DNA of 64,000 nt from a virus: positions 1-64,000 of the IMG/VR virus record IMGVR_UViG_3300036828_000547; one strand, given 5' to 3'. The translations under genes were made by a program, and so were the position numbers. Below, in pieces: positions 55,874-59,099 of this stretch. The notes under the pieces are model-generated. The model worked only from the letters and a program-made list of their open reading frames with translations. It was not told the DNA's origin and made no database searches. Every line of letters starts with the position of its first letter. The stretch's first letter is position 1.

Positions 55874-56077
55874 TTATGCGTCTTCCTTACCCTCATCCTC
55901 ATCATCATCGTCATCACCATCAGTCTCAAACCAAGATATGAATTCCTCGAAAGCTGTCTCTAGTCTTTCATTTGCAACAAGAGCCTGTCTTATTGCATCT
56001 CGCTTTATGGTCCAACGTTGGCTGTCATCGTCCACCACATCTGCGATGAGGTCAAGCAGTATCCCTATTTTACCCAT
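55874..56077 (-). CDS. small acidic-tail protein
   Basis: GGAG RBS at MGKIG; third gene of the Ubl operon. Confidence 0.6.
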   Translation of the reverse strand: MGKIGILLDLIADVVDDDSQRWTIKRDAIRQALVANERLETAFEEFISWFETDGDDDDDEDEGKEDA

Positions 56078-56097
56078 GCTTATCTCCATTGAGTTTA

Positions 56098-56751
56098 CTA
56101 GTGTCGATTAGCTACCCGTAGAAAGTCATCTTCTGCTAATTCAATCATAACTTTCTGCGTTAACAAGTGATCAAAGTGTGGCACCATACCGTGTGGAGCA
56201 TGGGCACAGAGTCGATGGTTCTTACCAAGTACGTCGATATTACCTGATATGCTACTCCCATTAATGCGATACTTCTGCTTGGTCCTACCTCCTTCGACAA
56301 TAAACCAACCATTTTCATTAAACGTCTTACGTTGTTCTGCTGTTAAATGTGACAGCAGTAGTTCTTTGGCTCTATTATTGGCCGTCCTAAGTAGTTCCTG
56401 TTCTATTGCCCGAGCGGCTTCTCGCTCAGCTTGCCGCGCCGCGCTGGCAATACGGTCTTCTTCCCTTTCATGCTGGTCAGACAGCCTGCGGATGATAGCC
56501 GGGGTGTAGGGAACAAACTGTGATACCAGTTGAGGCACCACCATCATCTGTTCTTCCATATTGGAAAGACCGTACCATAACCGAGGAATAGTACTCGTTG
56601 TTTGATTTATGGTTGGATAGATGATAGGAGTCGCAAGAGTGGTCGCAACAGGTGATATCCACTGTGGCCATGTTGGCAATGTGCTTGATATCCACTGTGG
56701 CCATGTCGGCAATGTGCGAGGGTACGAACGGACCTGATACATTGGAACCAT
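56098..56751 (-). CDS. Ubl-partner protein with single Cys (putative E2-like/ligase)
   Basis: starts 2 nt after the Ubl stop; C-terminal domain GNIDVLGKNHRLCAH..P..D..L.QK. Confidence 0.7.
   Translation of the reverse strand: MVPMYQVRSYPRTLPTWPQWISSTLPTWPQWISPVATTLATPIIYPTINQTTSTIPRLWYGLSNMEEQMMVVPQLVSQFVPYTPAIIRRLSDQHEREEDRIASAARQAEREAARAIEQELLRTANNRAKELLLSHLTAEQRKTFNENGWFIVEGGRTKQKYRINGSSISGNIDVLGKNHRLCAHAPHGMVPHFDHLLTQKVMIELAEDDFLRVANRH
56653..56717 (-). repeat. 33-bp tandem duplication (TLPTWPQWIS x2)
   Basis: two near-identical units with period 33. Confidence 0.9.
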
Positions 56752-56753
56752 GT

Positions 56754-56981
56754 CTAGCCGCCACGCAACTGAGGCACGAACATAACCTTGGAGGCTTTGG
56801 GGTCAAAGGTATCCATCCGTGATCCCTGCCCTCCAGAACCAGTCATATTGAATGCCCGATAGCCCTTCCCGATCATATCATCAAAGGTGCTTTCGGCCGC
56901 TTCGACTTCGACTTCAACAGCCGGGTCCCATGTCACGCTAGTATGACCAGTGTGATCTAACTTAATAGTTTCATGCCTCAT
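56754..56981 (-). CDS. ubiquitin-like (beta-grasp) protein ending in LRGG
   Basis: GGAG RBS 7 nt before ATG 56981; 75 aa; C-terminus KVMFVPQLRGG. Confidence 0.7.
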   Translation of the reverse strand: MRHETIKLDHTGHTSVTWDPAVEVEVEAAESTFDDMIGKGYRAFNMTGSGGQGSRMDTFDPKASKVMFVPQLRGG

Positions 56982-57011
56982 GAATCTACTCCATTGGTTT
57001 CTACAACTATA

Positions 57012-57079
57012 ATGGTGCCACAAACAATTATGAATGTAAAGTAAATTTACTTGTAACTTTTATGTGATTATGTTACAAT
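57012..57079. promoter_or_regulatory. divergent sigma70-type promoters
   Basis: minus TTTACA-17-CACCAT; plus TTGTAA-17-TACAAT. Confidence 0.6.
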
Positions 57080-58024: not shown

Positions 58025-58393
58025 TTAGGGTCTAACGTTGGTGAATCCAATACCGACGCCAGCGCCCACATTGTTCGACAGACCACCCGAAACCGCAGCA
58101 CCGTTACCGATGCTGAGAGCACCGGACGCGGCGTTGCTCTGACCTGCGGAAGCACCGACCGCAGACGAGAGGCTACCAGCCGGGGAGTTCGCGGCAATGC
58201 CAGCACCAAGAGAGGTGTTGGTTCCGGTCGCAATTGAACCAGCCGCAGCCGATCCAGTTGAGGCCGCACCAGTCGCGGTCTGTACGTGACCGAAGTTAAA
58301 CCCCGTGCCAATGGCAACGGTCGATCCAGCCTGAGCCGGACTGACCGCAGCAATAAGAACGAGCAAAGATACAGACGCCAATAGCTTCTTCAT
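58025..58393 (-). CDS. secreted Gly/Ala/Ser-rich protein
   Basis: signal peptide MKKLLASVSLLVLIAAVSPAQA; AGGAG RBS. Confidence 0.75.
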   Translation of the reverse strand: MKKLLASVSLLVLIAAVSPAQAGSTVAIGTGFNFGHVQTATGAASTGSAAAGSIATGTNTSLGAGIAANSPAGSLSSAVGASAGQSNAASGALSIGNGAAVSGGLSNNVGAGVGIGFTNVRP

Positions 58394-58421
58394 GTGGGGA
58401 CTCCTAATGCTGCCAGAAAGA

Positions 58422-59099
58422 TTAATGTGCCCAGACACGGCAGCGTTGCTTGGGACCATCATAGTCGTTGCACAGCCGATCCTTTCCGGTTGTGCCTTCG
58501 ACTAACCAGATTTGACCACCCTTGAGTTCCTGATTGAATGTGGCTCTGAAGTTGTCCATTAAGTTGTTGGACTTCTCAGCACTAGCGGTGCTGAGAACAA
58601 CTGGCTGCGGTTGCGCCTGTGGAAGATAGCGCCAGCACACCTCAGGCATGGCCCGGTATATGTCTGTATTCAGACATAGACGGGCAACAGCGGCCTTTTT
58701 GAGCCCGAAGGACCATAAAGTACGAGCGTCCAAACGAGCCGCGCATCCCGGATCAGGGATGGTTGTACCGAAGCTGAAGCCAGTCCCGACGAATGCGCCG
58801 CCTCCGGAAACGGAGCCGAGGCACGTTTCCAGACCCGCTGCTGCAAGTCCAGGAGCGAATTCGGTGGGAACGTTTTTTATGGTTTGAGTCGCTGGAATAG
58901 TTGTGCCAGCGTTGACGACTGTAGTCGTTTTAACGGCCCCGACTCCGGTCCCCCCTTGACCAGATATGGCAACAGCCTTGGAGGCTGAATTAGAGTTAGC
59001 AGTGCCGGTTCCGGTGCCAATCGCTGTTGTTGTTTGTGCCATAGCAGAAGTAGAGACTCCACACATAGCTATGATGGAAGCCACGACTAATGGTTTCAT
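58422..59099 (-). CDS. secreted Cys-containing protein
   Basis: signal peptide ending AMA-Q; APGL..ETCLGSVSGG..GFSFG...DPGC..LDARTL..AAVARLC. Confidence 0.75.
   Translation of the reverse strand: MKPLVVASIIAMCGVSTSAMAQTTTAIGTGTGTANSNSASKAVAISGQGGTGVGAVKTTTVVNAGTTIPATQTIKNVPTEFAPGLAAAGLETCLGSVSGGGAFVGTGFSFGTTIPDPGCAARLDARTLWSFGLKKAAVARLCLNTDIYRAMPEVCWRYLPQAQPQPVVLSTASAEKSNNLMDNFRATFNQELKGGQIWLVEGTTGKDRLCNDYDGPKQRCRVWAH

Follow-up and report, generated by a model that had tools for sequence, protein, structure and literature searches.

The DNA considered in this study, referred to throughout as the window, consists of positions 1 to 64,000 of the IMG/VR record IMGVR_UViG_3300036828_000547, a virus of 78,660 bp whose record originates from soil and whose genome is estimated by CheckV to be 100% complete. 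Between positions 56,098 and 56,981 its minus strand carries two adjacent genes, the first encoding a small protein of 75 amino acids (aa) that ends in Gly-Gly (GG) and is modelled as a beta-grasp, the second a partner of 217 aa with a single Cys. They very probably represent a widespread phage-borne module of two genes, in which the Cys-bearing partner binds the small Gly-Gly protein, a conclusion to which I assign a probability of about 0.9. The features of the pair, in window coordinates, are these:

56989..56992, minus strand: GGAG ribosome-binding site, 7 nucleotides (nt) before the ATG of the small gene, read from the sequence.
56754..56981, minus strand: gene of the 75-aa beta-grasp (ubiquitin-like) protein, ending VPQLRGG, stop codon TAG included (open reading frame (ORF), homologues, fold model).
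56098..56751, minus strand: gene of the 217-aa partner, stop codon included, with its ATG 2 nt past the stop of the small gene.
56500..56751, minus strand: partner residues 1-84, a disordered, lysine-free N-terminal region rich in Thr, Ser, Trp and Pro, modelled without secondary structure at a pLDDT (predicted local distance difference test) of ~50-60 (model, composition).
56653..56717, minus strand: tandem duplication of 33 nt (97% identical) within the N-terminal region, encoding TLPTWPQWIS twice (repeat search).
56347..56499, minus strand: partner residues 85-135, a long helix rich in Arg, Glu, Ala and Gln, almost lysine-free and likely a coiled coil (model, composition).
56101..56346, minus strand: partner residues 136-217, a conserved alpha-beta4-alpha2 domain, UBC/RWD-like and predicted to bind the small protein (alignment, model).
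56206..56208, minus strand: codon TGT of the invariant Cys182, at the end of strand 4 and before the helix of residues 192-205.

An original prediction, made from the letters of the window alone, had described the ORF ending LRGG with its ribosome-binding site, and a next gene 2 nt away whose product has C182 as its only Cys and also D194; all of this is confirmed. The beta-grasp fold that it proposed for the small protein is recovered in an AlphaFold model (pLDDT 90). The fold has no counterpart at the level of sequence, since the small protein finds no match in Pfam, PHROGs, NCBIfam, PADLOC or the sequences of the PDB, and the ubiquitin, ThiS, Prok_Ub and related models of Pfam match none of 77 members of the family at E-values up to 1. 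The size of the family was estimated from an exhaustive profile search, with clustering at 50% identity, which gives 2501 clusters at an E-value of 1e-3 or better and 806 at 1e-10 or better. A few members contain tandem double domains.

The profile match nearly always reaches the last residue of the homologue. The tail was tallied in 162 representatives no more than 50% identical to each other. The protein ends exactly in GG in 144 of these (89%), in AG or RG in another eight, and in GG followed by one to three extra residues (AA, I, R, ANG, ER, L, GMG, A) in nine. The consensus of the tail is [ILMV]-x-[VI]-P-[QPA]-[LMI]-x-G-G. Because GG is found in so many representatives, and Gly as the last residue in 152, the comparison of sequences excludes chance as the origin of the GG end. 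The family thus has the conserved, exposed C-terminal Gly-Gly of a ubiquitin-like protein (Ubl), and the members with short extensions resemble Ubl precursors. Might the GG codons be kept merely as a Shine-Dalgarno sequence for the partner gene? This is unlikely, because GGCGGC is a poor Shine-Dalgarno sequence, because the conservation spans P-x-[LMI]-x-G-G, and because loci with gaps of 87-536 nt between the two genes keep the GG nonetheless.

The partner was compared with 68 homologues found by a word search, and the conservation of its residues was counted over 37-38 family members. Its end domain (residues 136-217) is modelled as one helix, four strands and two helices with pLDDT above 90. 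The residues that are nearly invariant in all clades, F150, Y161, N171, C182, D194, Q199, K200, E204, E207, A214 and N215, all fall within it. The Cys that had been singled out in the original prediction is conserved in 36 of 37 members (the exception being a shift in the alignment), D194 in 37 of 37 and N171 in 35 of 38. According to the model and the alignment, the Cys lies between strand 4 and the following helix, as it does in E2/UBC proteins. The N-terminal region, by contrast with this conserved domain, varies among homologues, and the tandem duplication at 56653-56717 suggests that repeats drive change in this disordered stretch.

The public gene call (P0015) starts the partner at M70, which would make it a protein of 148 aa. 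From the sequences the long form of 217 aa is more likely, because homologues align over all 217 aa and because in nearly all loci the frame stays open all the way from the preceding stop. It had been suggested that MMVVPQL, which occupies residues 69-75, echoes the tail of the Ubl. The motif is conserved in none of the aligned homologues, nor does it appear among the DNA repeats of 14 nt or more, and the likeness is most likely a coincidence. At the other end of the protein, many homologues terminate in Ala-Ala (32 of the 68, and 12 of 37 in viral loci) or at least in Ala, an ending that resembles an ssrA-type degradation tail; the partner in the window terminates in ...ANRH (56098-56103), unlike its Ala-Ala relatives.

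Searches for relatives of the partner outside the family yielded little. It has no match in Pfam, PHROGs, NCBIfam, PADLOC or PDB sequences, and the UQ_con, Prok-E2_A-E and RWD models match none of the 68 members at E-values up to 5. A Foldseek search of the PDB gave nothing convincing (the top row was the C-terminal domain (CTD) of Mad1, E 0.38), and a second structural search of the PDB gave coiled-coil rows only. The original prediction had likened the partner to a stripped E2, and to this extent the likeness stands: the best structural match of the end domain, weak as it is, is of the UBC/RWD type. The alignment with the HPN motif of E2s, on which the likeness had also been based, is taken up below.

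The association of the two genes, expected by the original prediction, holds across phages. Using either protein as the query, I retrieved 38 IMG/VR loci, and in 37 of them the partner gene is immediately preceded, on the same strand, by the small gene; the remaining locus is cut by the end of a contig. The intergenic distance is mostly 1-6 nt or an overlap. The relative frames and the gaps vary between loci, which speaks against the idea that the genes are joined by read-through or frameshifting, and no fused long forms were found (weak evidence in itself). Clustering of ORFs within ~4 kb revealed no third gene common to the neighbourhoods. A family of ~90-aa genes (...FNG...GFV...NY.SN..R.D......FEG...) adjoins the module in seven loci, including L002:4614-4889, L005:3012-3290, L027:2830-3114 and four others, and is not found in the window.

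Among GenBank phages, clear copies are found only in Rctr197k and in the 595-kb LR756511, both of which have the gene pair. In one jumbo phage a single small gene is accompanied by three paralogues of the partner. Virus Rctr197k (KX853510.1; L001:2309-2563) has, 1-3 kb upstream of its copy of the module, a transposase-like gene and a region annotated as CRISPR repeats. Three Bradyrhizobium plasmids carry a minimal pair, a protein of 73 aa ending LVGG and a partner of 126 aa that consists of the Cys domain only. An example is plasmid p195_1 of Bradyrhizobium sp. 195 (NZ_CP082162.1; L046:6680-7336), in which the tail reads RLVGG; these are conjugative plasmids of a culturable rhizobium, and neither an adenylating enzyme (E1) nor a JAB peptidase is found among the annotated neighbours of the pair. 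A further candidate comes from the cultured Agrobacterium phage Atu_ph07 (MF403008.1; L049:1038-2589), in which AUZ95013 (117 aa, ending KQFAGG) is followed 4 nt later by AUZ95012 (397 aa). The latter contains a ...KICVY...FDH... stretch and has the length and the phage of the third row found in BFVD for the model of the partner (E 0.045). The profile of the Ubl matches weakly (E 0.007, hhalign probability 47%) and that of the partner not significantly (probability 0.5%), so that the pair may be a very distant copy of the module in a cultured phage, with statistics suited to a lead only. The ESM Atlas yielded only unnamed clusters, mostly viral, and the patterns used found no relative in the species genomes of GTDB. 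None of the open-access papers searched makes mention of the tail motif or of a free Ubl encoded by a phage together with an E2-like partner.

That the two proteins bind each other is supported by a predicted complex of the small protein with partner residues 118-217. Three runs gave scores of 0.79, 0.84 and 0.86, for an overall score of 0.84, as compared to 0.03 for the best control. Of 80 solved complexes, 58 reached this mark, as did two of 110 mismatched pairs; the calibration is rough, since the alignments used here were my own. At least 93% of the contacts agree between runs, and the pLDDT of the partner is at least 88. The interface comprises residues 182-186, 188-191 and 194-215 of the partner, plus the preceding helix, and residues 6, 8-13, 42-55, 67 and the whole tail (69-75) of the small protein. 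The pairs of lowest error set residues 8, 12, 13, 44, 67 and 69 of the small protein against residues 194-206 of the partner helix. In the model, then, the invariant Cys is followed by a helix against which the small protein packs with its sheet face (the hairpin of strands 1 and 2, strand 3 and strand 5), and the GG tail and the Cys loop both fall within the predicted interface. In the closed state of E2~ubiquitin, the Leu8/Ile44/His68/Val70 patch of ubiquitin lies on crossover helix alpha2 of the E2 (PMC8062481). The small protein uses the same face in the predicted complex, which thereby resembles that closed state. As in canonical Cdc34~Ub (PMC8062481), the prediction puts the equivalents of Leu8, Ile44 and Val70 on the helix after the Cys and the tail in the interface.

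The composition of the partner is also unusual. In the window it has no Lys at all in residues 1-128 (56368-56751), and the N-terminal regions of the 68-member set together have five Lys in 4637 residues. Within the same set, the helix is 1.5% Lys and 16.1% Arg, and the domain 5.5% Lys and 9.0% Arg; the corresponding values for the phage proteome are 4.7% and 5.2%. Lysine deserts are known in components of ubiquitin and pupylation systems, where they have been read as a guard against self-modification (PMC10169902, PMC10665810). The desert in the partner may accordingly offer soft support for Lys-directed chemistry beside its domain. A low-complexity composition is an alternative cause.

Systems that resemble the module are found on the other side of the conflict between phages and bacteria. 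Bil (BilABCD), Bub and type II CBASS with its Cap2 likewise set a small beta-grasp protein with a terminal Gly beside a compact, non-canonical E2-like protein. They are cellular anti-phage operons, however, always equipped with an E1 and a peptidase, whereas the phage module consists of two genes without E1 or JAB. The phage partner is set apart also by its lysine-free disordered N-terminus and its coiled coil and by the lack of any match to Prok-E2, UQ_con or PADLOC models. Non-canonical E2s of bacteria lack the last UBC helices and, like the partner, the HPN motif. They have a His just C-terminal to the catalytic residue, as in the Bil-type operon 6d (PMC1779556), and BubB has a catalytic S333-x-H335 plus an Asp (PMC11601596). 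The C182-x-H184...D194 of the clade to which the window belongs resembles these arrangements, but the His is confined to part of the family, and no E2 model is matched at the level of sequence. Another phage-encoded beta-grasp with a conserved C-terminal Gly is the tail assembly protein I (TAPI) of Lambda and T1 (PMC1779556). TAPI, however, is a product of the tail operon, carries a second domain fused to it and has TAPK JAB/NlpC peptidases as partners, while the proteins considered here are encoded in early-gene regions, are free-standing, and pair a beta-grasp with a Cys domain devoid of any peptidase signature.

What might the pair do? The chemistry may be that of a Ubl and an E2-like protein without an E1 of their own, charged by an adenylating enzyme of the host on which they would depend, a reading which is the best of the explanations considered here and to which the analysis lends a probability of about 0.4. 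The small protein would then be a Ubl with an exposed Gly-Gly C-terminus. The partner would be a minimal, non-canonical E2-like carrier, whose long helix probably oligomerises and whose small UBC/RWD-like end domain would hold the beta-grasp protein tightly in a closed arrangement like that of E2~ubiquitin. A host E1, either of the ThiF/MoeB type or from a defence system, would adenylate the tail, which would next be transferred to Cys182, and the variable N-terminal region would choose the targets. In its fullest form, this becomes a minimal two-protein system of Ubl tagging in phages, borrowing a ThiF/MoeB-type or defence E1 from the host (or relying on Ubl chemistry not yet seen), marking host or phage proteins early in infection and using the lysine-free, hypervariable N-terminus to select substrates. 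So specific a version I advance tentatively, as one that is rather unlikely in all its parts to be right.

Several observations weigh against Ubl conjugation by the pair. The first is the absence of the enzymes that should accompany it. The original prediction had noted that the window has no E1 or JAB, and this extends to the complete genome and to nearly all complete relatives: ThiF (PF00899) is found neither in the CheckV-complete genome itself nor in 11 of 12 relatives that are at least 90% complete, and the picture for Prok-JAB is the same. Only two of 33 records bearing the module have PF00899, in both cases far from it. Since the phage has no E1, a thioester would need an activity of the host. 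Second, the partner does not have the HPN motif. The proposed alignment of GNIDV...C with that motif fails, as the conserved N171 is part of strand 3 instead of following strand 4, with a variable spacing from N to C, and Cys182 is at the end of strand 4 rather than ~10 residues later, as in E2s. H184 is kept in 26 of 38 members, those of the nearer clade only; the other 12 have Q, R, Y, F, V, I or A at this position. Third, the lysine desert is weaker in a more diverse viral set (2.0% Lys as opposed to 8.2% Arg). Finally, the original prediction asked whether G75 lies next to C182 in the complex. Both residues do lie in a confidently predicted interface, but the pair is not itemised among the contacts. 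The interface itself is very large, with 86-101 contacts that take in nearly all conserved residues of both proteins, and as modelled it is no less compatible with an obligate non-covalent heterodimer than with a transient E2~Ubl state.

The 436-kb jumbo phage of IMG/VR (G021; L045:1489-3247, L041:1510-2094) has, in a separate operon, a JAB gene (184 aa, PF14464), genes for proteins of 89 aa (ending ...KTPFG) and 143 aa, and a ThiF gene (194 aa). The ThiF gene lies ~190 kb from the GG/partner module, and the operon may be an independent Ubl/E1/JAB set of the phage. In Rctr197k, ThiF and a weak match to JAB are ~3 kb apart.

An explanation without catalysis ranks next and is itself unlikely. 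According to this explanation, the two proteins form an obligate heterodimer, the partner being a pseudo-E2 or RWD-type adaptor that holds the beta-grasp protein, with Gly residues that fit a narrow groove and a Cys that is structural or senses redox state; what the pair does, be it host takeover, scaffolding or inhibition, would depend on the coiled coil of the partner and its variable N-terminal region. Besides the placement of nearly every conserved residue in the interface and the lack of E1 and JAB, it has in its favour that domains of the RWD and Mad1 types that follow a coiled coil have no catalytic role (the Mad1 CTD being the top row of the Foldseek search) and that one Ubl can serve several paralogues of the partner with different N-termini (loci L023 and L001). 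It accounts poorly for the tail, however: a Gly end in 152 of 162 representatives, plus extensions of one to three residues in nine, is the pattern expected of a carboxylate that is used chemically. A lone Cys that is invariant across clades of 30% identity would be unusual in a purely structural role in a cytoplasmic protein, and the lysine desert is left unexplained.

It is distinctly less probable that the module serves counter-defence, as a decoy or trap of host immunity based on Ubls (Bil, Bub and type II CBASS with Cap2/Cap3). The tail of the Ubl would occupy the E1 or the JAB peptidase of the defence system, and the E2-like partner would drain or block the activated intermediate. The position of the module as the first gene pair of an early operon is in keeping with such a role, as are its variable neighbourhoods in very different phages, seen also for many anti-defence genes, and the need for an E1 from elsewhere. 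Bacterial defences composed of E1, E2 and Ubl do exist and act on phage proteins, which are their targets (PMC11601596). Yet neither protein has sequence similarity to any PADLOC defence model, and the module is very common, in contrast to the patchy occurrence of Bil, Bub and type II CBASS among bacteria. Moreover, no evidence ties the hosts of the phages with the module to any of the three systems, and the copies on Bradyrhizobium plasmids are not obviously anti-defence.

Like ThiS, MoaD, TtuB, Urm1 and SAMP, the small protein is a beta-grasp with a GG end that is tightly paired with what the adjacent gene encodes, and it might be supposed to carry sulfur in the manner of ThiS, MoaD or TtuB. 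It would be converted to a thiocarboxylate by a host E1 and a sulfurtransferase, and the Cys of the partner would use or relay the sulfur, for example in the modification of a nucleic acid or cofactor. This is very improbable. Unlike those proteins, no member among 77 matches PF02597 at E-values up to 1, and no ThiF/MoeB, rhodanese, synthase or MoaE/ThiG/TtuA-like gene is linked to the module; the partner domain is too small and lacks any known sulfurtransferase fold, and extensions past GG would require a peptidase. Least probable of all is that the partner is a Ubl-specific cysteine peptidase or transpeptidase, which trims precursors after GG or, through a sortase-like acyl-enzyme, passes the Ubl to an amine without ATP: nine of 162 members do have one to three residues past GG, the tail and the Cys loop share the predicted interface, and the near clade has C182, H184 and D194 close together, as in the Cys-His-Asp triad of the original prediction, but 89% of members end exactly at GG and so offer no leaving group, the triad is broken by the replacement of H184 in 12 of 38 members, and no peptidase fold was matched.

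The surroundings of the pair are those of an early region. It stands at the head of a leftward early/replication operon on the minus strand, which goes on to encode proteins like Pam3 gp33 and gp34, helicases, a homologue of thymidylate synthase, a glycosyltransferase and a DNA polymerase, the last no more than 35% identical to that of any GenBank phage. Upstream are two candidate promoters:

57006..57034, minus strand: sigma-70-like promoter candidate TTCATA-17-TATAGT of the leftward early operon, with 9/12 matches to the consensus.
57051-57079, plus strand: divergent site.

The candidate promoter of the original prediction is thus present at 57034-57006 but is weak, being a match to consensus only. 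The listing of sequencing runs includes no RNA run carrying the locus, and the single DNA run listed for it is a soil metagenome, from which the record may derive. Directly after the partner, on the minus strand, is a gene of 71 aa (55874-56089), whose product ends in a run of Asp and Glu and has no match to any family. Just beyond the divergent early region, at 58025-59099 on the minus strand, are two overlapping ORFs rich in Gly, Ala, Thr and Ser, with N-termini that resemble signal peptides (MKKLLASVSLLVLIAA... and MKPLVVASIIAMCG...).

Bacterial Ubl conjugation is known only as a weapon of the host against phages, in Bil, Bub and type II CBASS, where an E1 invariably accompanies it. The module described here is on the side of the phage, is reduced to two genes, is very common in environmental phages and is unnamed in the libraries searched. 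If it does conjugate, then viruses of bacteria use ubiquitin-type tagging, and the question becomes what activates the tail; ThiF and MoeB, which are present in all hosts, are possible candidates. If it does not, the pair would be a clear case of a Ubl and a pseudo-E2 reused as a binding module.
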